Source: Cetorhinus maximus (Eukaryota). Taken from it: DNA of 64,000 nucleotides. The position numbers and the translations under genes are program-made. Numbering within the stretch: the first letter of the stretch is position 1; every line of letters begins with the position of its first letter. The DNA is taken from assembly GCF_964194155.1 (NCBI RefSeq), contig NC_135889.1, positions 34,038,001-34,102,000 of the forward strand, written 5' to 3'. The notes under the pieces were generated by a model, which saw only the letters and a list, made by a program, of their open reading frames with translations, did no database searches and was not told the origin of the DNA. This document shows, piece by piece, positions 13,851 through 52,880 of this stretch.

Positions 13851-14026
13851 GTTAACGTTTCGAGTCCGTATGACTCTCCTTCAGAGCTTCAGTTCTGATG
13901 AAGAGTCATACGGACTCAAAACATTAACCCTGTTTCTTTCTCCACAGGTGCTGCCAGATCTGCTGAATTCTTCCAGCATTTTTTGTTTTTATTTCAGATT
14001 TCCAGCATCCGCAATATTTTGCTTTT
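13851..14026. mobile_element. Penelope terminal repeat with a short inverted copy; two back-to-back hammerhead-like motifs
   Basis: Arms 13851-13888 and 13891-13928 are reverse complements (33/38); CTGATGA-A-GAGTC-ATACG-GACTC; then the family tail tccacaggtgctgccagatctgctga... Confidence 0.85.
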
Positions 14027-14075
14027 ACAACAAATTATACTGCTTTAACTTTCAAGATTTGTCCAGTTAAATTAC

Positions 14076-14442
14076 CTTGCTGTGCCCATGCTAGTTTCTT
14101 CCCTTTTTGGAAGCAGACTGCTGTACCGAATGGATTTGGTCCCAACACACTTCTCAACCAAGCCTGTAGTTTATGGAAACAGAACATCTTGGAGAGTCTG
14201 GAATAGCCAGATGTGACTAGAATTGGTTGCCAGAGAGCCAGTTCGTGCACAGGGTAAATTACTTCATTCTGACCAATGCTTCCTTCTATGAGAAAGTTCA
14301 ATGCTTTAACTGCTTCTACAGATACCATACTGTCATGGGTTGTGTGGGCTGAAGAGGTGAGTTGCTCAGGGTCTAGTAGAAGCTCCAACAACTCTGACAA
14401 GTGGTTCAGAACAAATACCAGATGGCTATGGTCATCCATATT
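14076..14442 (-). CDS. TBCCD1: TBCCD1 coding exon 3
   Basis: ccAG|AAT ATG GAT...CAA G|GTAAT; HLSELLELLLDPEQLT...HELALWQP...NPFGT...GKKLAWAQQ; 367 nt. Confidence 0.96.
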
Positions 14443-14889
14443 CTGGATTATATAGAGATAAAAATAACAATTTTCAGCAATTTATTATAAAACATTTCAT
14501 TACTAGATTGTTAATATCCAATTAAATGTTTAAAAAACTAACAATAGAAAATGATCACAGCTTGGGATAGAGTCATGATTTGTTAAACAACAATCAAATA
14601 ACTTGGTGCAGACCAATTTATGTTGGCAATTTAACAAAGAAATGATGTAAGGATTGGTGGAAAAGAAAAAAAAAATTGCTGGTTTTCTTTGCAAGATGTA
14701 TTTTAAAATTACCAAATTGAGTAGAGGAAATTGATGCTGACATTGGGTAACAGAAAAAACACTGCATTTCCAAAGATTGATATTCCTCACCTCAATATCT
14801 AGAAAAAAAACACTCAAATGTACTGTTTGTGTTTACCATATGCACCACTAAGTGTTTGATAAAACATGAGATATTATATGCCAAATTTA

Positions 14890-16070
14890 GGTTACATGAT
14901 GTGGGGGTGGAATAGGAATATGCATAGCAAATTGCCCAAGAGACAGTAAACAAAGGTACTTTTAAAAGGTGTAGCTTCCCAAGTGGATTCTATCACAAGT
15001 AGGTGTCCCAAGTGTGTGTTACATCCTCTTCTGTTTATTATACACATTAGTGAACTGGATTTTGACCCAGTGACAATGAAAGAATGGTAATATATTTCCA
15101 AGTTAGGATGGTCTGGAGGAGGACATTGGTAATGCAATAATAAAATTTGTCAATGACACCAAATTGTACAGCAGACTTTAACAGGAGGATAAGGGATTTG
15201 GGATAGACTGGAGATAGATTTTTGCAAACAGCATTAAATACAGCCAAATATGAAGTTATCAACTTAAGTGGAGTTAATAGGTCATGAATATAACATGAGT
15301 GGGTGGTGTTTAAAGATAACAAATAGGGGAAAGCTGTGACAGTGACCAATGAATGTTCCTTCAAATCTTCCAAGGCAAACATTGTCTGAACAGTTTATGA
15401 AAATTAGGACCATAATAATTGGTTTATACAAAACTTTGGCTTAATTTAGAGTTGTGGGTCCAGTTTTAGTGCACACACTTCAGGAAGAATATTCTGACTC
15501 TTGAAACCATAGCTACTTACAGCACAGAGGGAGGTCATTTAGCCCATTAACTCTTTGCTATAGCAATGCAACAAGGACAATCCCCAGCCTGAGAGCACTG
15601 AGCTATAAAGAATGACTTGATGTGGCAGATATGTATCACTGGAGAAATGGAGAGATTAAGGCAATCTGATCCAGGTATTTAAGATGCTTAAAGGTAAGAG
15701 CAACATAAAAGTGGGTAGTGTATTTTGAGTTGATGGAGATAGGCAGAATAGGGCTACCCACATAAATGGAGGAACCATGGAAGAAAGTTAGGTGTCTGGA
15801 AGTTTTCCTTTTCCTAAAATGACTGACCCAATGGAACAGGATTCCAGAGGTAGCTAAGATTGATTCTTTACAGTCCTTTAAGGAAGCAATATATGAACTC
15901 AGGAAAAAGAGGTAATTGCAGCATGAGGGAGGCAACAGTAAATCATTTTGGATAATAATTAACAGGTCTGGGACCTATAATGGAACAATTGAGGATTTTT
16001 TTGTGAGGAACCTCAAATCAGCTACAGGAAGAGAATGGAGGCAAGCACAAATGGGTCTTATGGCTTTTTC
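14890..16070 (+). mobile_element. Old degraded CR1 LINE
   Basis: Remnants of GVPQ, KFVNDTKL and VQF motifs and a CR1 3' UTR. Confidence 0.6.
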
Positions 16071-16687
16071 TGGTCTTTGATACTCAAACAAAAAGAGGAG
16101 CTTAAAACACAAAGCCATTCAGGAACTGAGTTAAAGACTTAAAAGAAATACACCTTAAACTTGCACAATACATTTGACTAAAATTCATGTTTTACATGAA
16201 TAAACAGTGAACTGATATAATCAAAAGTATAACTATTAATACTGCAGGAAAATTTTAACTTTGTGAATAGTTATAATCAAAAGGCATCAATAAACTGCAA
16301 ATATTTATTTGGACTGAAAATGAGTTAGGTACTGATGGAAGATTTCAGCAGTAAACTAGCATGCTCCAATTGTGAAAGGGACATAGCGAATGAATAACAA
16401 TATTCCTATTTAGAACTATTAACTTTTTGGCATGCAGTTCCTAAAGCTTCATTGCAATTATTTACAAGTCAGTTTTCACATTGGGGAATGCAGAATTACA
16501 TCTTGACGTACTTTGGTAGAGTTTCTGCTCATTACTGTAACTAGAACATCAAATTCAATTAATTCAAGTTGATATTGAGTGTTGAACAGCTTTTCGTTGA
16601 ACTCAAAAAATAGTACAATTATGAGAAATAGTTTCCTTGTTTGTGCACCATCCCTTATCTGCATATGAAGCATTTAAAAAAGCCTAC

Positions 16688-16837
16688 CTTGTTCTGAGAA
16701 TTAGATTTTCCATCCAGATCAGGTGATCGTGACCTGGGACTTGGCCATTCCTCTCCTATCAAAGATGTTCGTAGGGAAACTTTGTTCAGCTGCTGAACAT
16801 ACAAAAACAGCAGGAACTGCAGTGTGTCCACTGATAG
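16688..16837 (-). CDS. TBCCD1: TBCCD1 coding exon 2
   Basis: cAG|CTA TCA GTG...AAC AAG|GTAGG; LSVDTLQFLLFLYVQQLNKVSLRTSLIGEEWPSPRSRSPDLDGKSNSQNK; 150 nt. Confidence 0.96.
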
Positions 16838-18769
16838 CTGTGAGGAAACAAATGGCTCAATTTAGATTAGTGCTTTTTAAAAAAAAAATCGAATATATAA
16901 ATGTCTTCCATAAAGTATCTTGCAAACATAGAATGTATTAAAAGTAAAATGATATTTCTGAAAACTTTACAGCCTTTTATAGAACCTATTAAAGTACTAC
17001 TTGTTATTCCAATGCAGTTAACACTGAGGTCTTATCAACAGCATAATGCTGATTTCTTGTTTTTTTCCTCTATTTAAAGCTAATGTCATAACAAGATCCA
17101 TTGTAAAAACTGCTTGACGATTACAGGAAATTAGATAAACTTTTGAGTGCTTACATCTTATCCTCATGTAACCTTTTCTTCAATAAGATGCGAGTCCTGA
17201 TGGCCTCAGAGGACATGCTCTTGATCTCTCCCGAATTTTCTCATACCTACTGATATGGATATCATCTGATTTCCCAGCTTTTTATATTCGCAAGATACCA
17301 TGCCTCCGTGTGGCCTCCTGCCCAAAATACCTATCCAGTGATATCAGTTCATTCCTCAAGGGAGGAGCTGTCAAGATCTGCTGGGGCTGAGATTAGAAAA
17401 TCTTCTAATTCAACACCATTTTTAACCTTCACTTTTTTTGTAATGCAAATTCTCCGAAATGTGATTTTATAAGCACTGATTTGTAATCAACAAGATGTGA
17501 GAGGTCCTACAGTATAATTTACTGTTACAATCACAGTTAGAAATTTATTACTGAGGTGCCAACAGTAATTAAAAATACCAAGCCATTGGGTAATTGGAAG
17601 TAAGTCAATGCATCACATGGTAAATAGCAATCCCACATGGACCAGGAAGCTGTCATGATACCAGCCCTAATCTGTGTTCAGCATTGAATTAGGTTAAGGT
17701 TGAAGGACGAAGGCACCACACTGTGAAGGTTAACTAGGGACACTATAAATCAGTATAATAGATTTATTGTAAATTACAGCTTTTTACCAAGCCAATGTTG
17801 GAACAATTATTACAGCAGATCGTCTATCACTAACTTATGTAGGAACTCCTGGCTTTCATTCAAGGATTCAGATAAAAGGCAATTAAAAAACTAAGGAAAA
17901 TTGTATTTTACAAACTCAGCTGTATTATATTACTCATGAAGAAAGATATTTGAAATTTACATTGCATATTAAAAACTGAACAATTTTAAAATCCAATTTT
18001 TCATTACACTTGGAGCAAATTTCACTAAGTGAGCAAAACTTATGTGAACTCGCCCTTCACCATCCTATCCTACCGTTACAGTTCTTCAGCTAAGGTGGCA
18101 GCACACTTGATTAAAAATGTGTCCAGCATTACAGTTTTTGCTCCTCCACCAATGGACAGCAAACACAGTTTTTTTTGAGTTGGGACAAACATCCCCTAGG
18201 ACTCACTGTTCCATCTACTGGCCAAGACTGAATGAGGGAAACTTAATTTAAGTAAGAGTGGTGGCTGAGATTCAAACTGAATTACCTGTGACAGGTAGGG
18301 GTCAAAACTCTGGCATTAGAGATGTTTGATCACTCCCATTCCATTAGCTTTTTGAAACAGGCAAAAAAATATTGCAATGTCAATTGTGTAGAGAATAATG
18401 GATACCTAATGTGTTCACGAGGCTGTTTCTAAACAAAGAAATCTGGATTACGTTAGAAATCACAAAAGCAGTTTAGATCTATAATTGTCATTCCAATGTA
18501 GACTTGAAATCACTCACTGCATTGCTTTTTAATAAAACAAATGCACAATTTAGGGTATGCGTAGAGATGTTATCCATGTATTGTGCCAGCACACCCTGTT
18601 CATGCAATCCATGCTCTTAATGGGTGTTCTTTATATCACTACTCAAGGTTCATCAAGCACTAGTCAACAGTAAATTACAGGGAAGTTCTATGTCTAACTT
18701 AAAATGTAAAACTATAATTTCCTTATTGCACAGAAAAATAATTAATTTGGTACAAAAAAATGCCTATAC

Positions 18770-19105
18770 CTTGTATTTCAGTTTGTCAATTTCCTCTTCT
18801 GACCTGCAATGAGATACTGCCTCAGCCCACTCCAGCCTCTCCTCTGCAGTTCTCTCAAGAAGACTGTCAAATGTTTCAAAATACAGCCATGCCAAACATT
18901 CAGCCAGTTGCAACTTCCCACAAGCGATGTGCCTCCACATGGGCCAAGAAAGTCTGGGGTAGCCACCATCTCCTCCCTTTGTTCGAACGTATGTTGCCAT
19001 CTTTCGAAGGTAGTGCATACTGAATTTTGAAGGAGGTGGGATCTGCAAGACCCCAACAATGAAGGTTTCATATTTTACCCAAAGACGGACACTTGGCTGC
19101 TCCAT
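18770..19105 (-). CDS. TBCCD1: TBCCD1 first coding exon; spliced CDS totals 1668 nt (555 aa)
   Basis: MEQPSVRLWVK...QIPPPSKFSMHYLRK...WRHIACGKLQLA...EERLEW; donor AAG|GTATAG. A polypyrimidine/CAGCAG acceptor just upstream of the ATG implies a non-coding first exon further right. Confidence 0.97.
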
Positions 19106-19272
19106 TTCTGCTGAAAAGGAAATAATTTTATTTCACAGAGTTGGTTTTATGACAGCAATAAAAACTATAAGTCGCTTATATCTTAAACAATCAAGACTGA
19201 CTTGGTCTCATTAATAAAAATGCTCATGTGAAAACGCTGGCTTCATTCAGTTCCATATGATGGAGTCAGCTA

Positions 19273-20217
19273 TAGTAACGCTCTGCTTTAAGTCATTCTG
19301 CTTTAATTCTGGTCAGTTAATGAGGCACCTATTTGCATTTAGCATCAGGAATTTCATTTTGAAGTCATTTTGCACCAGCTCCGATGAAGGGCCAAGTGAC
19401 CAGATTGGTGCCATTCTGGAATGGCCTCTGCCATTCCCTGACTCTCCCACTCGCTGCCAACGCTCCTGTTCGTGGCCTCTGCCACTCCCTGACTCTCCCA
19501 CTTGCTGCCAACCCACTGGTTCACAGCTAAAAGCAAAATACTGCAGATGCTGGAAATCTGAAACAAAAACAGAAAATGCTGGAAAACCTTAGCAGGTCTG
19601 GCAGCATCTGAGAGAAACAGAGTTAACGTTTCGAGTCCATATTACTCTTCTCTGGTTCACGGCCTCTGCTGCTCCCTGACCCTCCCTCTCACCGCCAGCC
19701 CTCCAACGCATGCTTTACCCACTGCAAGTCGAAGCTGCCTTTTCCTGCCTCTTGCTGCTCATCTCTAGAGCCCTCACTCACAGAGAAGATTCAGGAGAGG
19801 GAAGCGGTGACTGAGAGAGGCAGAGAGCTGGAGGTTCGGCGAAATGAAGGGTCAAGGAGTGGGAGAGGGCATGAGCTGGAGAGAGGGAGGGAGTCAGGGA
19901 GTGGGATGTATGGTGAGCAGTAAGTTCAGCGAGCAGAAGAGGCAGCAAGCAGGAGGTGTGTTGAAAGTTAGCATATTTCTTTTATATTTTTAAATTCATC
20001 TTATTTTGAAAGTTATTTCTTTAACAATATAGGAATCCAGCAATATAAAGAATTTTGACTTCTAGGGCATAAATGTTTTTTTCTGATGAACGAGACCCTA
20101 CAGAACCTAACTATAGCTTTTACATTGATTTTAATGGGAAAATCTGATTTGCTTGAAGTTTCACTTAAAGTTGCATTTTCCAGGAACACAACCACAACTT
20201 TAAGTGAGGACTTACTG
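19273..20217. mobile_element. Tc1/mariner Tigger-like MITE with internal ~46-bp tandem units
   Basis: Right end ...CTTTAAGTGAGGACTTACTG|TA (TIR CAGTAAGTCCTCACTTAAAG); degenerate left end TA|TAGTAACGCTCTGCTTTAAGT; repeated tggcctctgcca(t/c)tccctgactctcccact. Confidence 0.6.
19528..19651 (-). mobile_element. Penelope terminal-repeat fragment inserted in the MITE
   Basis: Flanked by CTGGTTCAC(A/G)GC at 19516-19527 and 19652-19663; contains gttaacgtttcgagtcc. Confidence 0.85.
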
Positions 20218-21219: not shown

Positions 21220-21378
21220 TTGTCCCACCCTACCCTTAAACCAGCTTATATTTCACCTCTTCTATTTTTACTTAGTTCTGTTGAAGGGTCATTCGGACTC
21301 GAAATGTTAACTGTGTCCCTCTCCGCAGATGCTGCCAGACCTGCTGAGTTTTTCCAGGTATTTTTGTTTTTGTTTTAG
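21220..21378 (+). mobile_element. Solo Penelope terminal repeat with hammerhead-like motif
   Basis: Near-identical to 31520-31667; AGTT-CTGTTGA-A-GGGTC-ATTCG-GACTC-GAAA-TGTT-AACT at 21274-21312. Confidence 0.88.
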
Positions 21379-21880: not shown

Positions 21881-22823
21881 GCGGTTGCCCGCCCTTCAGT
21901 TTGTGCAGCTGCACACTAACGGAGAATCTGCAATGGGCGGCAGCAGGAAGAGCCTCAGCCCACAATCAATACGCGTAAAAGCAGCATCATCCTGCACAGC
22001 GGCTTGTCTAAGACTGTTCCACCTAAACACGGCTATAAACTGACAGACCAACACAGACAGAAGTATTGCACTCACCGAAACATGCACTTTCATAAACAAA
22101 CTCAGAAATGGCTACATAGCTGTGCAACTTCGCCAACACTTGGCAAGTTCGCTATTTGGATTTTTTTAAATGTTTTTTTTTAGGGCCTAGATTTGGTTTC
22201 ACCTTAATCTATTGTCTCCTCTCTGGCAACTGTTACGTTCCCAACTCAACCGAGGGTTTCGGTAGACGTACTCTAGTTTCTATTGGTCACCTGTCAACAG
22301 GAGACTTGCCATGATCTTACTGAATGGCTCTTATTTAGTATGTAGCATAATTGATACTAACTGGTCAGAATCATCCATTTGGATGGTGTATGTTAATGGA
22401 CAGAACTTTACTCTGCATTTTGTATGTATACACAACCTGTATGTACTGGGTTGACACTAGATCCAAAAGGTAGTACAGGTAAAGTGTTCCATCCTCTAGC
22501 ACTCAAATCACTCACCTTGATGAACACAAAAACGACCCCCCCCGCCCCCCGCCCCCAAAAATGATTTATTGCTGTGGCTCAGTTCATAGCACCCTCGCCT
22601 TTGAGTCAGAAGGTAGTGGGTTCATGTCCCACTCCGGGAAAAAAAAAGTCAAGAACTGTGAATGTACTCAGAGTTACATAGTTGTTGGGAAAGATTTATT
22701 CCAGACCACACAGCTCAATACTCCAAAAATGATTTATTTCACGAGACGTTTTATCAGTTAACAGAAAATGCTAGAAATATTCACAGATGCTGCCTGACCT
22801 GCTGAGTATTTCCAGCACTTTCT

Positions 22824-23382
22824 TCTTTTTTCATAACATTTGTAAAAGTGCATTCCAAAACGTTTCAAATCGAAAATTACAGAAATGTAATGTAATTCAA
22901 CTTTTATCCAAGCAGTATATGTTCCACTCTGAGATGCCTCAATACAATTTCAATAGTCTTGATATTCACAATACACATTCCATGTCAGGCATACAGCGAG
23001 TGGGGTTCTACACAGTGTCCAAGCCCTCGGAGTACTATGGCTGGAAGACCACAGACAGTGGCTTTTCCCCATTATGCCTCTGTGGCAATTTCCCCAAGCT
23101 TTAGTGTGTCTCTCAGCACATAGTCTTGGACCTTGGAATGTGCCATTCTGCAATACTTGGTTGAGGACAACTCCATGCACTGTAAGAGCAGTGAGTTTTA
23201 GGCAGACCAATGAGTATCTTTCACCAAATTGATGGTCTTCCAGCCACAACTGATCTTTTTGTCGGTGTGCGTCCCTGGGAACAGCCGGCAGAATACAGAG
23301 TCCTGCGTCAAGGAGCCACTTGGGATGAACCATGACAAAACCATTGCATCTCTCTTCAGACCTTCTTTACAAAGCCACATCA
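22824..23382 (-). mobile_element. 5'-truncated L1/Tx1-clade retrotransposon
   Basis: Minus peptide WFIPSGSLTQDSVFCRLFPGTHTDKKISCGWKTINLVKDTHWSA resembles Tx1 ORF2 C-termini; imperfect 16-bp TSD ATTTCCAG(C/A)A(C/T)TTTCT at 22808-22823 and 23383-23398. Confidence 0.75.
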
Positions 23383-23814
23383 ATTTCCAGAATTTTCTGA
23401 TTTTTTCAGATTTCCTGCATCCACAGTATTTTGCTTTTGTTTAATGTGTTAATGTTCTATTGCAATTTCACCTTCCCATATTTCAGTAATTCTGCCTACT
23501 TATTCTAACTCTTGTTCAGGGAGTGATCTAGGAAATTTGACTAAAAAGATAAAATATAAAATTGTACCCACTCCAGCATAACAATCTTTTCCTTCCCCTG
23601 CTTGGACAGTCCAGTTCATTGGAGGGTGATATGAATATTGATAGACAAGAACTGGCCCACAGTGATGCACAAGATTTAGATAAAAACAAAAAAAAAGAAC
23701 TTGCAAATACTGGAAATCTGAAATAAATCCAAAAATTCTGGAAATAGGTCTGTAAATCAGTATTCAATTCTGATGAAGGGTACACAACTGAAATGTCTTA
23801 ACTTTTCTTTCTTT

Positions 23815-24280: not shown

Positions 24281-24364
24281 TTTTACAGATGATGTCTGAT
24301 TGAACAGCTAAATATATCTAGCATTTTCTCATAATTTTGCATTAGTCAGATGATCTCCCTGATA

Positions 24365-24770: not shown

Positions 24771-24857
24771 TCCCAATGTGGTGACATCATCAATATTCAC
24801 AATTTAAACACAATTATTCCTGTACCAACACTGAAGTATTAGTTGGACTACTGTAAA

Positions 24858-26637: not shown

Positions 26638-26928
26638 GTGAGTGGCCCGGGGAGGGGAGAGCATAGGTACATCTCCAGCTCAGGTTCATGCTGCTTTCCC
26701 CACCGACACCCCTAATGAGAATGAATATCGAGGTTATTGACGCGTTAGGCAACCCTAGTTTAACCACCGGGTGGGAACTTGTTCAGTTATCTTTAACCAA
26801 AAATATTGCAGGGATTACCCTGGCCCGTGCAGTGCTCCACTTCAGTATATGAAGGTGTTGTGTTATAAAGTATTAGTTGAATTGTGTATATTTTATTTAT
26901 ATCTGTTGTATTTTTTGTGTGAGCACAG

Positions 26929-27085
26929 ACGGGATTTCTACAAGATCCTGGGGGTTTCTAAAAGCGCTTCGGTGAAGGATATCAAAAAGGCTTATCGTAA
27001 ACTGGCGCTGCAGCTGCACCCTGACAGAAACCCGGACGATCCGGCAGCGCAGGATAAGTTCCAGGATTTGGGGGCTGCTTATGAG
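26929..27085 (+). CDS. DNAJB11: DNAJB11 exon 2 (J domain, HPD motif)
   Basis: cAG|A CGG GAT...TAT GAG|GTACG; [52 protein letters not shown]. Confidence 0.98.
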
Positions 27086-27959
27086 GTACGGAGCAGGGCA
27101 TGTAGTGTGTGTGGGTGCTGGGAGTAAATGCAATGACTTGTGTGGTGAGGGTTAGGTACATTCGGCCTTTCCATGTGAAGTCTCATAGTCACTTTTTTAG
27201 TTCTGAGTTGTGATGATGACAAATCAGGGAGACTGTGTGGCTTCAGCTCATTGGCTACTGGTGAGGAGGTGAAAGGTCGCTCACTATAATTCAACAGACT
27301 GCTGGAGCAGCTGTTGTAAGATTCTCAACTTTCATATTGTTGTAATTCCATTTTTTGCAGGTCTCTGATACTTTTAGTTCAATGTTTAAACGGTTTAACA
27401 ATATAACTGTTAAACAGTATTTTGTTTCCTAACATATTTTCTAGAACGTGCCCAATTTATAAGTTTGAGATGTATTTCTGCATGGTAGTAAATTCACAGT
27501 ACTTTTAATAATTTAGGGTCCCCAAGTGTGTGGTGGAGTTTAACTGGCTAAAGGTACGTGGTTCACCAGTTAAGAACACTAGTAAGCTTAGGAGATGCAA
27601 ATCTGCCCTTCCACCTCTTGCTGAGAGTCTCAAAGACCCCTCTGTGAAACAATTACATGAACTTCCTCCAGTTTAAGAAAGAACTTGCATTTAGGTGCAA
27701 GGTGACCTTGTATGACCTCAGGATGTCCCAGTACTCCTTACAACTAATGAAGTTTTGTGTTCGTTGACCATGGTTGGAGCTTTTCTATATCAGGGAAACT
27801 GGGATAACTGCTTTGCTGAAGGACCTATGCTTTGTCTGCAGGTGCAGTCATGAGCTCCCAGTTTTTTGCCATTTCAATTCTCTGAGCCAGTTTGACTTCT
27901 GTCTTTAGCCTTCTGTTCTTCTTTAAATTAAGCTTGATGAACAGCATCTCATCTTTCTA

Positions 27960-28478: not shown

Positions 28479-31400
28479 TTTTGCCTTATTCACCTTCATT
28501 GCTTTCCATTTCTCTCCTGGTGTTTGACAAGGTGTTTACTAAAACCCGCTTTCACAGCCATATTTCCTTTCTCAGTGACTGTCTCCGTCTCTGACTCACC
28601 ACACGTGGATTTCAACTGAAATTCCATCCCTCTTGTTTCGAACCCATCCAGGATTACAGGTATCTCCGGGACATAAAACGTTTCTCGGACTGCTGTTCCC
28701 ATCGCATTCTGAGATCCACACTCAGTGCCATGCGCCGCCATATGAACACACTCGACCTCTCCCTCCAGCAGCACCGCCGCACCCTTTTTCAAAGCTGCGG
28801 GTGCCCCCAGTTTCATTTTATTCTTCGTCTCATCCGACGCCTCAACAAGAAACTTTTTCTCTTTCTCTCAAGTGCTAAGGAACGCAAGCTCCAACAACTC
28901 ATCGACACCAACACCCATCTAGGACCTTCCACCCCTGCTTGTCCCTCCGTCCCCACCCCATCTTCCAATCCCAGCCCCGGCCGTGTATTCACTATACCCC
29001 CTGACCTTCCCCTCTCCGATGCTGAACGTTCAGTGCTCAGCAAAGGACTTAGTTTCATACCCTTACGCCCTCATCTCAATGAATTTCGGGCTCGGCATGA
29101 TGCTGAACTCTTCTTCCGCCGTCTTCGTCTCCGTGCTCACTTCTTTGGGCAGGAGTCCACTCCCCGTTCAACGGATCCTTTTACCCACCTCCAATATTCT
29201 CCCTCCACCTGGACCCCTCCCTCTGGATTCTTACCTTTTCTTGATCTTTTCATTGAGAACTGTCGGCGTGACATTAGTCGTCTCAATTTCTCTGCTCCTC
29301 TCACCCATTCTAATCTGTCTCTCTCTGAACTTACTGCACTCCGTTCTCTCAGGTCCAACCCCGACATTGTCATCAAACCTGCTGACCAGGGTGGTGCTAT
29401 TGTTGTCTGGTGCACTGACCTCTACCTCGCGGAGGCTGAGCGTCAACTCGCAGACACTTCCTCCTACCTCTCCCTAGGCCATGACCCCACCACTGAACAT
29501 CAAGCCATTGTTTCCAGGACTGTCACTGACCTCATCTCCTCTGGAGATCTTCCTCCCACAGCTTCCAACCTGATAGTCGCCCAACCTCGGACGGCCCGCT
29601 TCTACCTCCTACCAAAATCCACAAACAGAACTGTCCCGGCAGACCGATCGTGTCAGCCTGTTCCTGCCCCACGGAACTCATTTCTCGTTATCTTGACTCC
29701 CTTCTCTCTCCCCTTGTCCAGTCCCTTCCCACCTACATCGGTGATTCCTCTGACACCTTACGTCACATCAACAATTTCCAGTTCCCTGGCCCCAACCGCT
29801 TCCTCTTCACCATGGACGTCCAATCCCTCTACACCTCCATCCCCCACCAGGGTGGTCTGAGGGCCCTTAGCTTCTTCCTTGAACAGAGGCCCGAACAATC
29901 CCCATCCACCACTACTCTCCTCCGTCTGGCTGAACTTGTTCTCACACTGAACAATTTCTCCTTTAACTCCTCTCACTTCCTCCAAAAAAAGGTGTGGCTA
30001 TGGGTACCCGCATGGACCCCAGCTATGCCTGTCTCTTTATGGGGTATGTGGAACATTCCTTGTTCCAGTCCTACTCCGGCCCCCTCCCACAACTCTTTCT
30101 CCGGTACATCGATGATTACTTCGGTGCTGCTTCATGCTCTCGTCGGGACCTGGAAAAATTTATTAATTTTGCTTCCAATCTCCACCCCTCCATCATTTTC
30201 ACATGGTCCATCTCTGACACTTCCCTGCCCTTCCTTGACCTCTCTGTCTCAATTTCTAGTGATAGACTGTCCACCAATATCCATTACAAGCCTACCGACT
30301 CCCACAGCTACCTCGACTACAGCTCCTCACACCCGGCTTCCTGTAAGGACTCCATCCCATTCTCTCAGATCCTTCGCCTCCGTCGCATCTGTTCTGATGA
30401 TGCTACCTTCAAAAACAGTTCCTCTGACATGTCCTCCTCCTTCCTTAACCGAGGTTTTCCACCCACGGTCGTTGACAGGGTCCTCAACCGTGTCCGGCCC
30501 ATCTCCCGTGCATCCGCCCTCACGCCTTCTCCTCCCTCCCAGAAACATGATAGGGTCCCCCTTGTCCTCACTTATCACCCCACCAGCCTCCGCATTCAAA
30601 GGATTATCCTCCGCCATTTCCGCCAACTCCAGCATGATGCCACCACCAAACACATCTTCCCTTCACCCCCCCCGGCGGCATTCCGTAGGGATCGTTCCCT
30701 CCGGGACACTCTGGTCCACTCCTCCATCACCCCCTACTCCTCAACCCCCACCTATGGCACCTCCCCATGCCCACGCAGAAGATGCAACACCTGCCCCTTC
30801 ACTTCCTCTCTCCTCACCGTCCAAGGGCCCAAACACTCCTTTCAAGTGAAGCAGCATTTCACTTGCATTTCCCCTAATTTAGTCTACTGCATTCGTTGCT
30901 CCCAATGCGGTCTCCTCTACATTGGAGAGACGAAACGTAAACTGGGCGACCGCTTTGCAGAACACCTGCGGTCTGTCCGCAAGAAAGACCCAAACCTCCC
31001 TGTCGCTTGCCATTTTAACACTCCACCCTGCTGTCTTGCCCACATGTCTGTCCTTGGCTTGCTGCATTGTTCCAGTGAAGCCCAATGCAAACTGGAGGAA
31101 CAGAACCTCATCTTCCGACTAGGCACTTTACAGCCTTCCGGACTGAATATTGAATTCAACAACTTTAGATCTTGAACTCCCTCCCCCATCCCCACCCACT
31201 TTCCGTTTCTTCCCCCTTCCTTTTGTTTTTTCCAATAATTTATATAGATTTTTCTTTTCCCACCTATTTCCATTATTTTTAAATCTATAACTGTAATGCC
31301 CTGTCAGTCTTTCCACCCCACCTCCACTAGAGCTGTACCTTGAGTGTCCTGCCATCCATTCTTAATTAGCACATTCTCTTAGATAATATCACCACCTTTT

Positions 31401-31669
31401 ACACGTCTTTGTTCCTTTGTCTGTGACATCTTTTGATTATCTGCTCCTATCACTGCTTGCTTGTCCCTATAACCACCCCCACCCCAACTACTCTCTCTCC
31501 CCCCCCCCCCCCACCTCCCCACCTTAAACCAGCTTATATTTCACCCCTCTCCTAACTTTACTCAGTTCTGCTGAAGGGTCATGAGGACTCGAAACGTCAA
31601 CTCTTTTCTTCTCTGCAGATGCTGCCAGACCTGCTGAGTTTTTCCAGGTAATTCTGTTTTTGTTTTGTG
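28479..31669 (+). mobile_element. Near full-length Penelope-like element (RT + GIY-YIG endonuclease), inactivated
   Basis: IKPADQGG, FYLLPK, TMDVQSLYTSIP, AMGT, RYIDD, and GIY-YIG LVYCIRCSQCGLLYIGETKR..RFAEH. In-frame TGA at 28592 and frameshifts near 29615 and 29985. Candidate TSD ATTAATAT at 28471-28478 and 31670-31677. Confidence 0.95.
31564..31602 (+). ncRNA. Minimal type-I hammerhead ribozyme-like motif in the Penelope 3' terminal repeat (A6C core variant)
   Basis: Stem I AGTT/AACT; core CTGCTGA; extra A; stem II GGGTC/GACTC; GAAA; palindromic ACGT stem III; GUC cleavage triplet. PLEs are known to carry minimal hammerheads. Confidence 0.7.
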
Positions 31670-31936
31670 ATTAATATAAGCTGCTATTTTGTAACCAATT
31701 ATTTCAATAGGCTGTTCTTTTCATGTTTTTTTTTTGCCCTCTTACACTTGTTCTGTTCTTTTATTGATTATCTGTAATATCTTCCAGTCCTGAGGAAGTG
31801 CTGATTGACTTTTGTTTCTCCAGAGATACAGCCTGAGCTACTGAGTATTTTCAGCTTTTTCTTTTTATACTATCTCATAAAGCTTCCTGCGGTCTGTCCA
31901 GCTAGGACAAATCAACCCTTTGGGGCATTGGCTTTT

Positions 31937-37576: not shown

Positions 37577-37762
<186 letters not shown>

Positions 37763-38334: not shown

Positions 38335-40350
38335 AAAACATAGAAAATAGAAGCAGGAATAGGTCATTTGGCCCTTTGACCCTGCTCTGCCAATCAATTT
38401 GATCATGGTTGATCCTCCAGCTCAATGCCATACTCTCACTCTCTCCCCAAACACCTTGATGCCATTAGAATATAGAAATCTATCTATTTCCTCCTTAAAT
38501 ATATTCAGTGACTTGGCCTCCACAGCCTTCTGTAGTAGAGAATTCTACAGGTTCACCACCCTCTTGAGTGAAGAAGTTTCTCCTCATCTCAGTCCTAAAT
38601 GGCCTACCCTGTATCCTGAGACTGTGACCCCTTGTTCCAGAGGAAACATCATCTCTACATCCAGTCTGTCCAGCCCTGTCAGAATTTTATACGTCTCAAT
38701 GAGATCCACTCTCATTCTTCTAAACTCCAGTGAATATAAGCCTAGTCAACCCAATCTCTCCTCATACAATAATCCTGCCATCCCAGAAATCAGTCCGGTG
38801 AGCCTTCGCTGCACTCCCTCTATGGCAAGTATATCCTTTCTTAGGTAAGGAGATCAAAACTGCACACAATACACTAGGTGTGGTCTCACCAAGGCCCTGT
38901 ACAGATGTAGTAAGACATCCCTGCTCCTGTACTCCAGTCCCCTTGCAATGAAGGCCAACAGGCCATGTGCCACCTTAACTGCTAGCTGCACCTGCATGGT
39001 TGCTTTCAGTGATTGGTGTACAAGGACACCCAGGTCCCTTTGTACACCAATATTTCCCAATCTATCACCATTTAAATAATACTCTGCCATTCTGTTTTTC
39101 CTACCGAAATGGATAACTTCACATTTATCCACGTTATACTGCATCTACCATGTATTTGCCCACTCACTGAACTTATCTCAATCACCTTGAAGTCTCTTGA
39201 CATCCTCCTCACCACTCACATTCCCACCAAGTTTTGTGTCGTCAGCAAACTTGGAAATATTACATTTGGTTCCCTCATTGATATATGTTGTGAATAGCTG
39301 GAACCCAAGCACTAATCCCTGCGGTACCCCATTAGTCACTGCCTGCCATTCTAAAAAAGACTAATTTATTCCTACTCTCTGTTTCCTGTCTGCTAACCAA
39401 TTCTCAGTCCATGCCAATATATTACTCCCAATCCCATGTGCTTTAACTTTGCACACTAACCTCTTATGTGGGACTTTATCAAAAGCTTTCTGAGAATCCG
39501 AATACACCACATCCACTGGTTCTCCCTTATCTATTCTGCTAGTTACGTCCTCAGAAAAACTCCAGTAGGTTTATCAAACATGATTTCCCTTTCATAAATC
39601 CGTGTTGACTTTGCCTAATCCCATTGATGTTTTCTGTTATCACATCCTTTATAAAAGACTCTAGCATTTTCCCTACTACTGATGTTAGGCTAACCGGTCT
39701 GTAATTTCCCATTTTCTCCCTCCATCCTTTTTTTAAATAGTGGGGTTACATTGGCCACCCTCCAATCTGCCAGGACTGTTCCAGAATCTACAGAATTTTG
39801 AAAGATGACAACCAACACATCCACTGTTTCCATGGCCACCTCCTTTAGTACCTTGGGATGTAGCATATCAGACCCTGGGGATTTATCAGCTTTCAGTCCC
39901 ATTAATTTCTCCAGCACGTTTTTTTAGTAATACTAATTTCCTTCAATTCCTCCTTCTCACTAGACCCTTGATTCCTTCGCATTTCTGGGAAGTTATATGT
40001 GTCTTCCTTCATGAAGACAGAATTAAAATAGTTATTTAATTGCTCTGCCATTTCCTTGTACTCTATTATAAATTCTTCCCTTTCAGACTGTAAGGGACCT
40101 ACGTTTGTCTTTTGCATATTTATAGAAGCTTTTACAGTTCGTTTTTATGTTCCTTGCAAGTTTGTTCTCATGCTCTATTTTTCCCTCTTAATCAATCTCT
40201 TGGTCCTCTTTTGCTGAATTCTAAACTGTTACCAATCCTCAGGCTGCTACTTTTTCTAGCAACTTTTTATGAGCCCTCTTTGCATCTAATACTAATTTAT
40301 CTTGTTAACCATGGTTGGGCCACTTTTCCTGTTGTGTTTTTGTGCCAGAA
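38335..40350 (-). mobile_element. CR1 LINE, 5'-truncated
   Basis: KADKSPGSDMLHPKVLKE, MQYNVDKCEVIHFG..QRDLGVLVH..LVRPHLVYCVQF. Confidence 0.95.
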
Positions 40351-40439
40351 AGGCACAAAATACACTGACTTTTACAGTAATCAAAGAACTGTTACAAGGT
40401 TCAATTTTTCAACAATTCTAATAGTAATAAAGTAAAAAT

Positions 40440-43255
40440 CCAGGTTAGTGTGCATGTATGTGAATACAGTGAGTGTGGGAAATAAGACTGGTGAATTACA
40501 GGCACTGATTGCCATGTGGAACTTTGTTCTGGCTATAACAGAGACCAGACACAAAGAAAGGCAGGACTGGGTATTAAATATTCCTGGATATAAGATGTTC
40601 AAAAAAGATAGGAAAGGAAGAAAAGGGGGAGGAGTGGTGATGTTGATTAAGGAAGCATTGCAGTGCTGGAGAAAGAGGATGTCCCAAGGAGTCAAGGACA
40701 GAATCCATTTGACTAGAGCTAAGGTACAAAAAATGTGCAATTACATTACTCGGTGTAGTCTATGGGCACCAACCAGTGGTAAGGATGTAGAGGAACAAAT
40801 TTGCAGGAAAATTATAGAGAAGTGCAAAATTATAGAGTGGTTATAAGGGGGGGACTTTAATTACCTGAATATAGACTGCGACAGTAGTCTATAGGGCAGA
40901 GAAGGGGCAAGAGTTCCTACGGTGTGTTCATGAAAATTTTCTGCAGTAGGTTTCCAGTCCATCGAGAAAGAAGGCACTGCTAGACCTGGTTCTTGGGAAT
41001 GAGGTGGGCCTAGTGGATCAGGAGGAGAACGTTTAGGGGTCAGAGATCATTGCATCATAAGGTTTAGGCTGGCTATGCAAAAGGACAAAGAACAATCCAG
41101 AGTAAGAATAATTAACTGGGGGAAAGCCGACTTCAATGGGGTAAGAATGGATCTGGCTGAATAAGTTAAAAGTTGGCGGAAGAAAACAGTAGCTGAACAA
41201 TGGGCTATCTTCAAAGAAGAGAGAATTTGGGCATAGTCAAGGTGTATTCCTTGAAAGAGAAAAAGGTAGGACAAACAAATCCAGACTTCCTTGGATGACA
41301 AAAGAGATAGAAATTAGGATAAATAAGAAAAGGTGTGCTTATGGCAGATGTCAGGTAGAAAATACAATTGAGAACCAGGCTGAACATAGAAGGTTCAGGG
41401 GGAAAGTGAAAAAGTAATGAGAGAAGCAAAGATGGAGTATAGAAAGAGATTGGCAGCCAACATAAAAGTCTTCTATAGGCATATAAATAGTAAAAAAGTG
41501 TTGAAAGGAGGATTAGGACGATTAGTGACCAAAAAGGGGATTTGCGCATGGACGCAGAGGGCATGGCTGAGATATTAAACGAATACTTTGCGTCTGTCTT
41601 TATCATGGAAGAAGCTACTACCCAGACCATGGTGAAAGTGGAATTAATTCAGACACTAGAAGGGTTTAAAATTGATACGGTTGGAAGTATTGGATAGGCT
41701 GCCCATACTTAAAAGTTGATAAGGCACCAGGACAGGATGAGATGCATCCAAGGATACTGAGGGACATGAGAGTGCAAAGTGCGGAGGCACTGGCCATAAT
41801 GTTTCATTCTTCCTTTGACCCTGGGAAGGGGCCAGAGGACAGGAAAATTCCAAATGTTACACCCTGTTCAAGAAAGGGGTATAAAGATAAACCCAGCAAT
41901 TACAGGCCAATCACTCTAACTTTGGTGATAGGAAAACTTCTAGAAACAATAATTTGGGACAAAATTAATAGTCACATGGACAAATGCAGGTTAATTAAGG
42001 ATTTCTGAAAGAAAAACCATAATTAGCTAACTTGCTGGAATTTTTTGAAGAGATAACAGAGGGTTGATGAGGGTAATGCTAGTGATGTGGTGTACATGGA
42101 CTTCAAAAAGGCATTTGATATAGTGCCGCACAACAGACTTGTGAGCAAAGTTACAACTCATGGAATAAAAGGGACAGTAGCAACATGGTTACAAAATTGG
42201 CTGAGTGACAGGAAACAGAGCAGTAGTTAATGGATGTTCTTCGGCTGGAGGGAGGTTTGAAATGGAGTTCTCCAGGGGTCAATGTTGGGACCCTTGCTTT
42301 TTCTGATATATATTAAGGACCTAGACCTTTGTATACAGGGCACAATTTCAAAGTTTGAGGATGATGCAAAATGTGGGAGCATTGTGAACTATTAGGAGGA
42401 TAATGTAGAGCTTCAAAAGGACAGAGACAAGTTGTTGGAATGGGTGACAAGTGGCAGAGAAGTTCAATGCAGAGAAATGTGAAGTAATTCATTTTGGTAG
42501 GAAGAACACAGACAATGAAAAATAAAGGGTGCAACTCTAAAGGGGGTGTAGGAGCAAAGAGACCTGGGTGTATACGCACATAAGTCGTTGCAGGTGGCAA
42601 GACAGGTTGAGAGCACGGTTACTAAAGCATGCAGTAACCTGGGCTTTATTAATAGGGGCATGGAGTACAAGATCAAAGAGGTTATGGTGAACTTGTATAA
42701 GACACTAGATTGGCCTCAGCTGGAGTAAGTGCACCCAGTTCTGGGTGCCGCACTTTAGAAAGGATGAGAAGGCAATGGAGACATTGCAGAAAAGATTCAC
42801 AAGAATGATTCCAGTGATGAAGAACTTCAGTTATGAAGATCAATTGTAGAAGTTAGGACTATTTTCCTTGGAGAAAAGCATGCTGAAAGGAGATCTAATA
42901 GAGGTATTGAAAATTATGAGGGGTCTGGACAGAGCAGACAGGGAGAATCTTTTCTCACTTGTGAAAGGATCGAGAATGAGTGGGTACAGATTTAAAGTAA
43001 TTGGCAAAAGCCAGATGAGAGAGAACTTTTTCATATAGTGAGTGGTTAAGGACTGAAATGCACTGCCTGAGTGTGTGGTGGAGGCAGGTTCAATCGAAGC
43101 ATTCAAAAGGGAATTTGACTGTCATCTGAAAAGGAATAAGGTGCAGGGTTACAGGGAGAAGGAGGGAGATAAGTACTAAGTGAATTGCTTATTTAGGGAG
43201 CTGGTGCAGACATGATGGGCTGAATGGTGGCTTCCTATGCTGTAACAATTCTGTG
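40440..43255 (+). mobile_element. CR1 LINE ORF2 (APE endonuclease + RT), degenerate
   Basis: CMYVNTVSVGNKTGEL..AITET..KDRKGRKGGGV (APE), PSNYRPITLT, DVVYMDFKKAFD, CR1 3' UTR. Confidence 0.95.
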
Positions 43256-43261
43256 CATTCG

Positions 43262-44345
43262 AACATACAAAATAGGAGCAGAAGTAGGCTATTTGGCCCC
43301 TCGAGCCTGCTCCGCCATTCAATAAGATCATGGCCGATCTGTTTGTGTTTTGAATTCCACATTCCCATCTACCCCTGATAACCTTGGTGTCTTGTTAGGT
43401 AAGGAAATCAATCTACCTCTGCCTTAAAAATATTCATTGACCCTGCCTCCACCACTTTCTGAGGCAGTGTTCCAAAGTTGCACAACCCTCAGAGAAAAAA
43501 ATTCTCCTCATCTCTGTCCTATAAGGGTAACCCCTAATTTTAAAACTGTGCCCCCTGGTTCTGGACTCACCCACAAGAGGAAACATCCTTTCCACGTGCA
43601 CCTTGTCAAAACCGTTCAGGATCTTTTATACTTCAATCGAGTCACCCCTCAGTCTTCTAAACTCCAGTGGAAACAAGCCCAGCCTGTCCAACCTATCCTC
43701 CTAAGACAACCCGCTCATTTCAGGTATCAATCTAGTAAACTTCCTCTGAACTGCCTCCAACACAGTTACATCCTCCTTTAAATAAGGAAACCAAAATGGC
43801 GCACAGAATTTGAGATGCAGTCTCACCAATGCCCTGCAAACTGAAGCATAACATCTTACTTTTATATTTAATCCTCTCGTAATAAAGGATTGCATTCCAA
43901 TAGCCTCCGTGATTACACGCTGTATCTGCATACTAATTTTTTTGTGACTCGTGCATTAGAACATTTAGATCACTCTGCACCTCGGAATTCTGCAGTCGTT
44001 CTCCGTTTACGTAATACTCTTTTTTTATTCTTCTTGCCAACATGAACAACTTCACATTTTCCCACATTATACTCCATCTGCCAGATTTTTGCCCACTCAT
44101 TCAATTTATCTATATCCATCTGCAAACACTTTGTCTTCTTCACAACATAGTTTCCTACCTATCTTTGTGTTGTCTGCAAATTTAGCTACCATGCCTTCGC
44201 TCCCTTCATCTAAGTCCTTGGTGTAAATTAAAGGTATTGAAAAGCCCTTGTGGGACTCAACTTGTCACACCCTGCCAAACAGACAAAGACCCATTTATGC
44301 GTACTCCTTGTTTTCTGCCAGCCAGCCAATCTTCTACCCATGCCA
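43262..44345 (-). mobile_element. CR1 LINE 3' fragment
   Basis: ALVRLHLKFCAPFWFPYLKEDVTVLEAVQRKFTRLIP. Confidence 0.92.
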
Positions 44346-45135: not shown

Positions 45136-45584
45136 TTATCCAAACTCCAGATAGTACACGAATAGTCTGTTCTTGTCCCCCCCTTTCTCAACAATAGATC
45201 ATTCAGTTTAATGTATTGCCTAATTTGGCACACGTCTAATTAGCTGAAGGAACATTTGTGCCCTTGTGGAAATTGTTTGTCACTGTTGCTTCCTCTTTAC
45301 GTTATCATGGTTAAAAGGCAGGGTTAGTATTATGCAAAATTTGTGTTAAAATGATGTAATTAAATTGTTTCAGATCTTCATTCTTGGTTTATCAGTATCC
45401 TGAAATTGAGTGCCGCAGATAATGATAGATCCCCTCTTGTGCTTCATTGACATTGAGTGTGCTAGTGGCAGTACACGTATACGTTACTTACAAAGGATGA
45501 CTAATTCTTCCACTGTTTCTGGTGAGAAAAGCATGAACATAGTTTTGCCTCTACCACTGTTGCCCAATGAACAAGGGCTTCCCT

Positions 45585-45680
45585 TTCTGATGAAAGGTCC
45601 CGACCTGAAACATTAATTCTGTTTCTCTCTCCACAGAAGATGCCAGAGCTGCTGAATGTTTCCAGCATTTTCTGTTTTTA
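45585..45680 (+). mobile_element. Penelope terminal-repeat fragment with canonical hammerhead core boxes
   Basis: CTGATGA(45587-45593)-A-AGGTC-CC-GACCT-GAAA-CATT, then the family tail. Confidence 0.8.
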
Positions 45681-46749: not shown

Positions 46750-46902
<153 letters not shown>

Positions 46903-47297
46903 TGAGTATTAGTTTTAACATCTTCAACTTTATATTACTCAAGAGAATGGCAGCACCAATTACGAAAGCAACTGGACTAATTAAAGTATTGTGTTCAACA
47001 AAATAAGTTTTTTGTTGCAGCTGGACAAGGTGTATCTTTCAACATAACTATTAGGCCCATTGCTCATAGAATCATACTACTGCTTAACACCTACCCCACC
47101 TAGGAGTTAGTCATATGACAATCAAAATAAAGTATTAAATTGAATCCTGCAATGCTTGAAGTAGCAGTTATTTTATTGGAAAAAAGCATTTTTTAATAAA
47201 AAAAACTTTACAAGTGGGAGATATTTTCTAAATGTACCTTGTTCCAAATTGGCTATCAATAACATTTTGACATTTTGTTGTAGAAAAAGTGCCTTAA

Positions 47298-47690
<393 letters not shown>

Positions 47691-47984
47691 TAAAGGAGGA
47701 ATAGGGAGGTTGCTTGGAAGGCTGGTCGAAAGGGAAAACCACTTTTCTTTCCACTTCCACACAACCACCTCCAGAGTATCCCATGGTTGCATCTTCTTCA
47801 CCCAGCTTTTCCAGATATATACATATACAGCCCCAAGGAACATTAGCTGGATAATGAGCTTAGTTTTCACAGGCATGATGACAATGCCTGGACCTATCTC
47901 TCCTCCACTAATCTGAACCTCTTTGACATGAGATTGCTTGTCTGACATCAGGTTATACATAAGCTAGATCTCCTTCAACCTAAT

Positions 47985-49969: not shown

Positions 49970-50405
49970 AAAAGAAAAGAGTTATTTGCATTTATATCAC
50001 CTTTCACATGCACAAAGTCCAGAAGTGCTTCACAGTCAATTAATTACTTTTGAAGTGTAGTCCCTGATTTTATGTAGGTTATGTGACAGCCAGTTTGTAC
50101 ACAGTAAGGCCCTGCAAACTGCAATGATAAATGATGAAATAATTTGCTCTGCTGATGTTAATTGAGGTATAAATATGGGCTAGGAAGTAGTAAAGCTTAC
50201 CCGCTCTTATTTGAACAGTGCCATGACTTCTTTTGCATTCACTTGAAGAGGCAGACAAGGCATTAGTTGAATATCTCATCAAAAGGTGAACCTTCTGACA
50301 ATGCAGCAGTCTCTGAAGTGTCAGCTTAGTTTACATACTCAAATGGGGCTTGAAGTCATGACCTGCCTTGGCTGAAAGTGTTACTGCTGAGTCAAGCTGG
50401 CACTT
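49970..50405 (-). mobile_element. Deu-domain tRNA-SINE
   Basis: Reverse complement of 23815-24280 (ttacttttgaagtgtagtc...gttaattgaggtataaatatggg). Confidence 0.75.
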
Positions 50406-50633
50406 CAGCTGTACCAACATTTTCACTAGGACAAAGATATATGTGCATGTGTCTGTAAAAACAAACTTAAATTAAAATAAACAATCCAAAATTGTGTTCA
50501 ACTTCTTTCCTGGTTCTGTAAAATGTTGCCAGAAACTATTTTCAAATTGGTTTCAGCAAGTGGGTTTTGTATTTACAAAACTGGTACCTTTTTAATGTGT
50601 GGAGATGAAGTTGTATATTCTGTTTTCTTACAG

Positions 50634-50691
50634 GTGAACCTCACATAGATGGAGAACCTGGAGATCTGAAATTCAGAATAAAGGTTTTAAA
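50634..50691 (+). CDS. DNAJB11: DNAJB11 exon 7; later exons not seen in the window
   Basis: cAG|GT GAA...TTA AA|GTAAG; EPHIDGEPGDLKFRIKVLK. Confidence 0.95.
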
Positions 50692-52029
50692 GTAAGAAGA
50701 TATTTGATTTATTTCTCCATATAAGACAAATGACTCGTGGTGAATTTCCTTTTTTTGTCAAAGGTATTAATTTTGCTTTTCATACAAAAAACAGTCATGA
50801 AGCTCCAGTGGTAGAAAGTTGGACTTGACACCCATAGGCCTGCAACTTTCAATAGAAGATTTAAAATGTCTTCAAACTTGCCTGCTCATGTTGGCTAAAT
50901 TGTTGCAGGTCTCATTGCATTTCTAGATGGACCATTACATGACATTTTAGAGAAGCAATTTAGTAATCTTGTAGGAACTTCCAAGGGCTTTTGTACATAA
51001 ATCCTTATCCTGAATGAATTAGCTAGTATGATAAACTGTACAAGCAATTGAAAATGTTTTGCATCTTTCTTCACTTTAAATTTATATGAATATATTGATA
51101 TATGCCCAACAATTGGCTGTTATAGCACTGTAGCTTCTGAGTGGGTAAGTTGATGGTTCAACTTTGTATCTGGTATATACTTCCTCTGAAGTAGTCACTT
51201 GCAGATTGCTAGTATAATCTCCTTACCTCAGATTGCTCCACTCCTGACAGAAAGAAGTGAGCGTATATTACTTTCTTGCTTTTAAAAAAACTAGTTAACC
51301 TCCCACGGCATTGCACATGAATAGTGTAGAGTCTGAAGCACTTTTGTGATGTTTAGCTTTTAAGATTGAGCTGTTTTTAATGTTACCTGCCTCTTTAAGC
51401 CACTGCTGAAGTGCTTTAAGTAGACCCATTGTGAGATTAATTACAGCAATGACTTTCATTTATATAGCATCATTAAATTTAAAATAGGGGAAAATAACAG
51501 CAGGTTAGGAGAGTAGAAAGGGAAATAACCAATGGCATGGTTAAAAAGGCTTTAGAATGTGGGCAGATGTTAAAGTGAAGAGTTTAGAAGGAAGTTTTGA
51601 GCATAGGGCTGAGATAGTTGAGGGCTCTGCCATCAAAGTGGAGGACAGGATATACAGAAAGTTAGAGTTTGGAAGAGCAGAGAGCACCTCCTAATACACT
51701 GGGCTGAAGCAAGTTGCAATAATAGGGAGAATAGCGGTTAATTGAGGCAGGTGGAGTTTTGCATGAGTTGGTGTTTAGGGTGAAGCTTGGGAGACTGAGA
51801 AATGTATTCACCAGATTTGGCCCAGATATGATGAAGATGTGGATGCAGGTTTCTGCAACAGGCCTACAGTAGAGAAGAGAAAGGTGATGTTGTAGAGCAG
51901 TAGGTAGGTGGTCTTTATGATGGCTATGAATCTCGCTCAAAGTCATTTAGAATACTAACTTTGTACACTGTTGGATTTAGCCTATGAGAGCAACCAGTAA
52001 AGAGGCAAAATTGGGAGCTTGAGTATTGA

Positions 52030-52880
52030 GTTTTTTTGTTGGGAGATGAACAGAAACGCTTTGGTTTTACTCATTTTGAGTTGTAGAATTCTGACTCACT
52101 GATGTATATTAATGGCCAGGACTTTGTTAAAGGAGGTATAGCGTCAAAATTTGCACATGGCAGAAAACTTGGAAATATAATGAACTGAGAAGAAGATAAT
52201 AACAAATGGTAGCAGTCATGAGGTGGTTGTGGCAGGCTTTTGAAATATGCAGCCAGATAATTATGCCCCAATTCTGGGTACTGTGCTTCAGGAAGAATAT
52301 CAAAGTCTTTGAGAGGGTGAAGAGGGGATTTGTCAAAATTGTACCAGAGATGTGGGAACTGACAGACTAAAGAAACTAAGAGATAAAAACAAAAAGCTAA
52401 AAGCTGCCGAAGGGCCGTGAAGGCTCGAAACGTTAGCTGATTTCTTCTCCACCGATGCTGCCAGACCTGCTGAGTTTTTCCAGGTAATTCTGTTTTTGTG
52501 TTGTAAAGAAACTAAGGTTGTTTTCCTTGGAGTAGAGAAGGTTATGGGAGGTGAAGATATAATTGAAATGTTCAAATTATGAGGAGTTTTGGTAAGAGTA
52601 GATGGGGAGAAGTGTTTCCACTGGCAGGGGAGTCAGTAACCAGATGTCATAGATTTAAGATAATTAGCAAAAAACAAAAGAAAATATGTTTAGTGAGTTC
52701 TGATCTGGAGTTTATTATCTGATAGGTTGATAGAAGCAGTTTCAATTGTAACTTTCAAAAGGGAATTGAATATATACTTGAAAAGGCAAAGTGTGCAGGG
52801 CTATGGGAATAGAGCAGGGAGTAAGACCAAATGAATAGCAGTTTCAAAGAGCTGGACAAATTGTGATTAGCAAAATAATC
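52030..52880 (+). mobile_element. CR1 3' fragment containing a Penelope tail insertion (52381-52503)
   Basis: CR1 motifs (caattctgggtactgtgcttcaggaagaat); insert flanked by 13-bp TSD TAAAGAAACTAAG at 52368-52380 and 52504-52516. Confidence 0.8.

Follow-up and report, generated by a model that had tools for sequence, protein, structure and literature searches.

Introduction

What becomes of a hammerhead ribozyme when the retrotransposon that carries it loses the adenine at position 6 of the catalytic core (A6)? The question is raised by a 64 kb stretch of Cetorhinus maximus DNA (NC_135889.1, positions 34,038,001-34,102,000; hereafter the window), which contains spliced genes, a Penelope-like element (PLE) and seven hammerhead-like motifs. 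Three of these motifs are followed by a CCAGGTA tail and carry U or C in place of A6. Searches of the 4.0 Gb genome reveal that the lineage to which they belong lost A6 and kept spreading. We consider it about an even chance that its ribozyme is throttled but still selected, with slow cutting that would depend on a dimer or on protein.

Position 6 across the genome

An exact pattern for the ribozyme, which takes in the older A6A7 family and leaves out the youngest copies with G at position 1.1, matched 52,531 sites; its reversed control matched 0. Position 6 is U in 24,338 of these (46%), C in 16,174 (31%), A in 11,420 (22%) and, by subtraction, G in 599, so that searches requiring CUGANGA miss 78% of the exact matches of this family. 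The tail as sole anchor gave 59,520 genome matches. When 102 exact tail matches were read out, 81 retained the core, with U in 42, C in 29, A in 7 and G in 3, some of the G calls probably being junction artefacts. The initial annotation had held that copies with this tail always lack A6, which these seven A6 copies contradict. Copies collected without selection on the core (133 of 199, namely those in register and reaching 5' of stem I, a set enriched for young elements) have A at position 6 in 4 of 133, and thus depart from the canonical CUGANGA core.

The youngest stage, as defined by stem II, has C6 in 10,662 of 10,718 matches. Its 56 non-C matches include six with A6 and six with G6, eight further A rows belonging to the old family (counted by eye); there is no excess reversion to A6 in this young background. 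The older family typified by the motif at 45587 has A6 in 60 of 67 exact matches. If the three variants in the window were products of separate decay after insertion, three differing cores would be expected, and three are seen; but each variant core recurs in thousands of copies, whereas the seven non-A copies of the older control family are scattered over three letters (counted by eye). The counts refute this explanation, which is hardly conceivable, and identify non-A6 as the consensus of a lineage. Contigs from other species (organisms C and D, runs X8 and X9) span position 6 and list no alternative letter there; a missing row is not probative, and they give a weak hint that C6 is shared in other species.

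History of the loss

Trees were computed from the last 700 nt of the open reading frame (ORF) of the element, with the ribozyme excluded, for 101 rows and for 52 rows (51 plus one outgroup, with at most ten rows per stage and three near-duplicate or misplaced rows left out). They are ladder-shaped: the 41 non-A rows form one clade against ten A rows and the outgroup (support 95/82), and U and C at position 6 require four to five changes each. A6 was lost once, and switching between U and C followed. Seven stage consensuses, built from 4-53 rows each, order the series by the mean divergence of copies from their consensus: 6.0% for A6A7, 4.5% for A6U7, 3.1% and 3.6% for U6, 1.4% for a mixed stage, 0.8% for C6C7 and 0.2% for C6U7 with G1.1.

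The CCAGGTA tail predates the loss, as the A6U7 stage (S2) has both the tail and A6. The cores read for the three tailed window copies (CTGTTGA, CTGCTGA and CTGCCGA) are correct, but the copies represent three successive stages and not one tail-defined subfamily; those at 21278 and 52404 contain no ORF sequence, so that only their ribozyme and tail could be used for staging. A young U6 side lineage (L206, L214) has C11.2, which turns a stem II G-U pair into G-C, and G at 1.1 or 1.2, which gives a wobble pair in stem I.

The host element

The window PLE is 93.8% identical to an intact element over 3,197 columns, and its GIY-YIG match falls below the Pfam cutoff. A genome search with its protein gave 131,374 candidates, of which the 103 closest to the query were scored; PLE lineages that are young and carry A6 could lie elsewhere in the genome, outside these 103. 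Many of the scored matches have equal scores and open frames of 924 codons. Twenty retrieved stretches yielded 18 intact ORFs of 917 amino acids, encoding nine distinct proteins, with nine copies identical. Every ribozyme found flanking these ORFs is C6; an upstream ribozyme is present in 10 of the 18 and ribozymes on both sides, about 3.3 kb apart, in 9.

A single 924-codon frame matches RVT_1 (E = 8e-7) and, C-terminally, GIY-YIG (E = 5e-4), each match falling slightly short of its Pfam cutoff, and contains YIDD and YIGET motifs; a PDB search with the ORF gave no match. The linker between reverse transcriptase (RT) and endonuclease (EN), CPRRRCNTC, fits the CX2-5CxxC feature of Neptune elements, which is common to Nematis (bioRxiv 2021.04.23.441226; this and all papers below are cited for the portions consulted). 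The hallmarks of EN+ PLEs are present: a single ORF with RT and C-terminal GIY-YIG, pseudo-long-terminal repeats (pLTRs), inverted 5'-truncated partners and a tail. As judged from the RT, GIY-YIG and CxxxxCxxC linker features, the element is a Neptune-type PLE. A non-LTR retrozyme was rejected, tandem non-coding hammerhead units being absent and the copies being either dispersed 3' ends or flanks of a coding ORF. Selection on the ORF persists (6 changes at 231 second positions versus 11 at 116 fourfold sites). The proposal of recent activity is borne out: with 0.2% divergence in the youngest stage and intact ORFs, the lineage has been active very recently.

In the younger stages the tail carries a ten-codon upstream ORF (L258:4149-4181) that ends at the GTAA of a CCAGGTAA motif. 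This motif also resembles a splice donor, and the first Met of the long ORF lies at L258:4282.

Hammerhead motifs of the window

All seven motifs were located where they had been placed, at 13884 (minus strand), 13895, 21278, 23770, 31568, 45587 and 52404 (Table 1). Six of the seven pass a scan for the core, a 4-bp stem II and GAAA-YRT, against a mean of 0.01 and a maximum of 1 in 100 Markov shuffles; an Rfam scan of the window at E <= 10 matched no hammerhead family. The motif on the PLE copy reads, in order, stem I strand AGUU, core C3-U4-G5-N6-N7-G8-A9, an extra A, a 5-bp stem II with a 5-nt loop, G12-A13-A14, a palindromic ACGU, position 17 and the closing stem I strand AACU. The predicted cleavage, after position 17, would fall after 31598. 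The 39-nt haplotype of this hammerhead recurs unchanged at eight loci. The motifs at 13884 and 13895 are opposing arms of one inverted insertion, with A9>G in the minus arm and G12>A in the plus arm.

Table 1. Hammerhead, PLE and promoter-like features of the window
Feature	Positions	Strand	Remarks
Minimal hammerhead, C6 core (C at 31571)	31564..31602	+	stem I 31564-67/31599-602; stem II 31576-80/31586-90
Conserved tail 3' of predicted cut site	31603..31668	+	reverse transcription likely begins here, judging by the anole PLE (PMC11167929)
5'-truncated Neptune-type PLE copy (RT, CxxxxCxxC linker, GIY-YIG)	28479..31668	+	ORF broken over three frames
TATA-like TATATTTC	31535..31542	+	29 nt 5' of the first base of stem I; putative promoter role
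U6 hammerhead (CTGTTGA), short 3'-end copy, C15.2>T CpG decay	21274..21312	+	
C6C7 hammerhead (CTGCCGA), C-G stem II pair	52404..52438	+	starts at C3, without the 5' stem I strand
Inverted pair of older A6 hammerheads, single insertion	13850..13929		minus arm 13850-13888, plus arm 13891-13929
A6 hammerhead, older family, shorter stem II/loop (AGGTC/GACCT), stem I decayed	45583..45618	+	
Decayed A6 motif, stem II not intact	23766..23802	+	stem II reduced to 2 basal pairs

Constraint on the core and stems

The identification as a PLE minimal type-I hammerhead, with a palindromic ACGU replacing stem III, is upheld by the stems, the core layout and the palindrome (15.1-16.1), which has C15.2 in 127/133 and G16.2 in 122/133 copies, most exceptions being CpG-type. 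Stems I and II are present, with G10.1-C11.1 and the extra base 9a. The letters of the looser (G/A)AAA and YRTY pattern of the initial annotation do occur, but as CpG-type decay of GAAA-CGU and not as a motif: C11.1>T (9/133) and G12>A (8/133) are symmetric. G8>A, also CpG-type, is seen in three copies, all after C7.

Apart from position 6, C3, U4, G5, G8, A9, G12, A13, A14, A15.1, U16.1 and H17 are retained in the 133-copy set. A non-CpG allele shared by at least three copies occurs at six of the seven sites known to be free (N7, loop II and position 17) but at none of the ten remaining core positions (Fisher p = 6e-4). These figures bear on the explanation that catalysis went with A6 and that the fold or sequence was kept for protein binding, as RNA 5'-end structure or as a downstream promoter element. 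The invariant set coincides with the catalytic core (G8, G12, A13, A14, A15.1 and U16.1), whereas N7, loop II and position 17 vary, the last always as U or C; this speaks against lost catalysis. On its side are the large published rate loss of A6C in Mg, the insertion in vitro of an anole PLE, unaffected by core mutants (PMC11167929), and the internal promoter of Drosophila virilis Penelope (PMC2377424). We regard loss of catalysis as doubtful, though a serious contender.

Another explanation is that a dispensable ribozyme is drifting in a slow master lineage, with too little time for other core changes. About 14 fourfold-site changes per 120 sites have accumulated since the loss, at which rate 0/10 changes has P ~0.3. 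However, free sites within the 39 nt of the motif have undergone repeated change, position 6 itself has changed several times, and all inherited stem changes seen keep pairing (UA>UG>CG at 10.4/11.4; AU, GU or GC at 10.2/11.2; UA>UG at 1.1 and 1.2). Drift is improbable in our estimate. The pair at 10.4/11.4 is UA in 65, CG in 62 and the intermediate UG in three of the 133 copies. Stem II had been described as covarying; its pairing is indeed kept, but the young family shows only one double change plus wobble changes. An alignment of 18 rows has 97.8% of stem II cells paired and two pairs changed on both sides, and in these rows the two-sided changes do not beat shuffles (184/500).

The youngest subfamily has a possible 6-bp hairpin (L258:4091-4107) that pairs bases 5' of stem I with C6-G10.1; the predicted probability of stem II is 0.19, versus 0.92 with A6. 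A switch between alternative folds was considered and not adopted: some stages, though not S6, shift towards non-ribozyme folds when position 6 is swapped in silico, and the result depends on the 80-nt window used.

Copy ends and the start of the RNA

Among 152 tail-anchored copies, 24 have their 5' end 0-8 nt 5' of C3, one in the next 10 nt, and 62 reach past 85 nt; 5' ends thus gather at the start of stem I. TATATTTC is invariant across the seven stage consensuses and, together with the downstream motif, has 55,590 genome matches. The downstream motif, YYAGTT, follows it at a distance of about 29-30 nt and overlaps the first bases of stem I of the 31564-31602 hammerhead. We take TATATTTC to be TATA-like and YYAGTT to be initiator (Inr)-like, and we infer that this promoter directs initiation of the RNA at the first base of stem I. 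The pile-up is less likely to reflect a splice acceptor at AG|TT, as the ends spread over ~9 nt and do not fall on one base.

Meaning of the A6-less ribozyme

The mechanism that we favour starts from the single loss of A6, the U/C exchange that came afterwards and the retention of the other core bases and both stems. Cleavage at +35 would strip the RNA of its cap, and cleavage in the downstream repeat would take away the tail, the likely starting place of copying. As cutting would cost the element both, it would tolerate or even profit from a change that slows the reaction: more template would stay usable, with residual cutting or the fold still under selection. That the other core bases are kept suggests that residual or conditional cutting still matters. 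Every copy analysed was collected by its tail or carries it, and so derives from RNA uncut at that ribozyme. Sequence does not by itself choose between variant catalysis and lost cleavage, and leans towards a ribozyme that is retained and weakened.

Several points weigh against such a ribozyme. Of the 152 copies, only two have their 5' end exactly at the cut site, where a peak had been sought; this also favours lost catalysis. The start site is deduced solely from DNA ends, and positions +1 to +39 of the predicted transcript, which the motif occupies, could be held by promoter function, as lost catalysis would also have it. Fourfold-site change since the loss is ~0.115 per site (summed over stages), and the resulting P ~0.3 for zero changes at ten sites leaves drift as a possible cause of core constancy; the alleles scored in the free-site test come from related copies and are not independent events. 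Folding of monomers gives the hammerhead stems as dominant in one of five non-A6 representatives. In the literature, even A6-bearing minimal hammerheads of PLEs are weak (PMC4209133), the rate of another hammerhead fell ~1e5-fold with A6C at 0.3 mM Mg (PMC7151607), and pairwise mutagenesis of the CUGA turn gave no rescue except for a C3:G8 swap (PMC9901934).

The variant core might instead be fully active in vivo, with the PLE protein, a dimer contact or Mn2+ standing in for A6. Protein-assisted cleavage of the anole PLE (PMC11167929), rescue of A6C by Mn2+ (PMC7151607) and the continued strong selection on the ORF agree with this. We nevertheless give it little credence: the stages around the loss show no compensating RNA change, S2 and S3 having one stem and loop consensus in common, and cellular Mg is normally far above Mn (PMC7151607).

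A further possibility, which we hold to be unlikely, is a gated switch at the RNA start: the pyrimidine-6 hammerhead would be nearly silent alone and would remove the cap only on being licensed by the element's protein, by another copy of the RNA or by Mn2+. If true, it would give an active vertebrate retrotransposon feedback control of its transposition. PLE hammerheads cut weakly in vitro, and anole insertion in vitro is independent of cutting; the dated natural series of A6, U6 and C6 in near-identical contexts, with an intact cognate protein, offers a means of telling whether selection acts on catalysis or just on the fold.

Other features of the window

Five further tail copies of older related families have missing or decayed cores (7366-7436 and 19528-19660 on the minus strand; 22784-22848, 31823-31887 and 55821-55911). 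Exons of a DnaJ-domain gene (Pfam DnaJ), presumably DNAJB11-like, lie at 26759-27127 and 47298-47693 on the plus strand, and the hammerhead copies at 31568 and 45587 sit between them, sense to the pre-mRNA. Head-to-head with this gene is a minus-strand coding exon (18764-19132), which we take to resemble TBCCD1. Endonuclease/RT fragments of the long interspersed nuclear element (LINE) type, presumably CR1/L2-like, are found at 57765-60726 (minus strand), 54660-55182 and 38363-44343 and are unrelated to the hammerheads. Long inverted repeats at 2797-3541 and 55187-55792 (arms of 218 and 96 nt) are possibly remnants of DNA transposons.

Comparison with known systems

The motif resembles the minimal hammerheads of metazoan PLEs (Cervera and De la Pena, 2014; PMC4209133) in its type I order, 4-bp stem I, extra base at 9/10.1, G10.1-C11.1 pair, palindromic 15.2-16.2 without loop III, presence in both pLTRs and many lone copies. 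It differs at position 6: the consensus there is CUGANGAH, with A6 in every row of Fig. S3 that was compared and U3-A8 as the core variant given in the text, whereas U and C dominate here in an active lineage. Short-stem-III PLE hammerheads studied by Lunse, Weinberg and Breaker cleave as dimers, according to a review (PMC6765202).

C at position 6 is shared with the natural A6C hammerhead of phage Bcep176 (Perreault, 2011, PMC3088659; Naghdi, 2020, PMC7151607). The latter is slow yet active, at 0.004-0.05/min in 1-3 mM Mg and 0.31/min in 1 mM Mn (PMC7151607), and published A6C ribozymes react slowly in Mg2+, a defect that Mn2+ relieves (PMC7151607, PMC3088659). Unlike that single ribozyme, assayed alone, the motif described here is a predicted dimer-type one, present in at least 16,174 C6 and 24,338 U6 copies and belonging to an autonomous eukaryotic retroelement.

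The pLTR-ORF-pLTR organization, the tail 3' of the ribozyme and the lack of ends at the cut site are shared with the Poseidon PLE of Anolis carolinensis (Frangieh, 2024, PMC11167929), although Poseidon belongs to another clade, without the zinc-finger linker, and its ORF begins inside the ribozyme, whereas the first Met of the long ORF here lies ~150 nt downstream of the predicted cut. The anole hammerhead depends on the element's protein to cut and can be dispensed with for insertion in vitro; copying begins within the tail (PMC11167929).

Our literature searches found no A6U or A6C reported for PLE hammerheads and no natural A6U, a claim of novelty limited by the fact that subscription papers, figure images and the alignments of Lunse et al. 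were outside their coverage; the portion covered of a 2026 retrozyme preprint does not discuss core variants. Minimal hammerheads in PLEs, the U3-A8 variant and one phage A6C ribozyme were already known; a PLE family with U or C at position 6, its A>U>C history and its U6 stage appear to be new.

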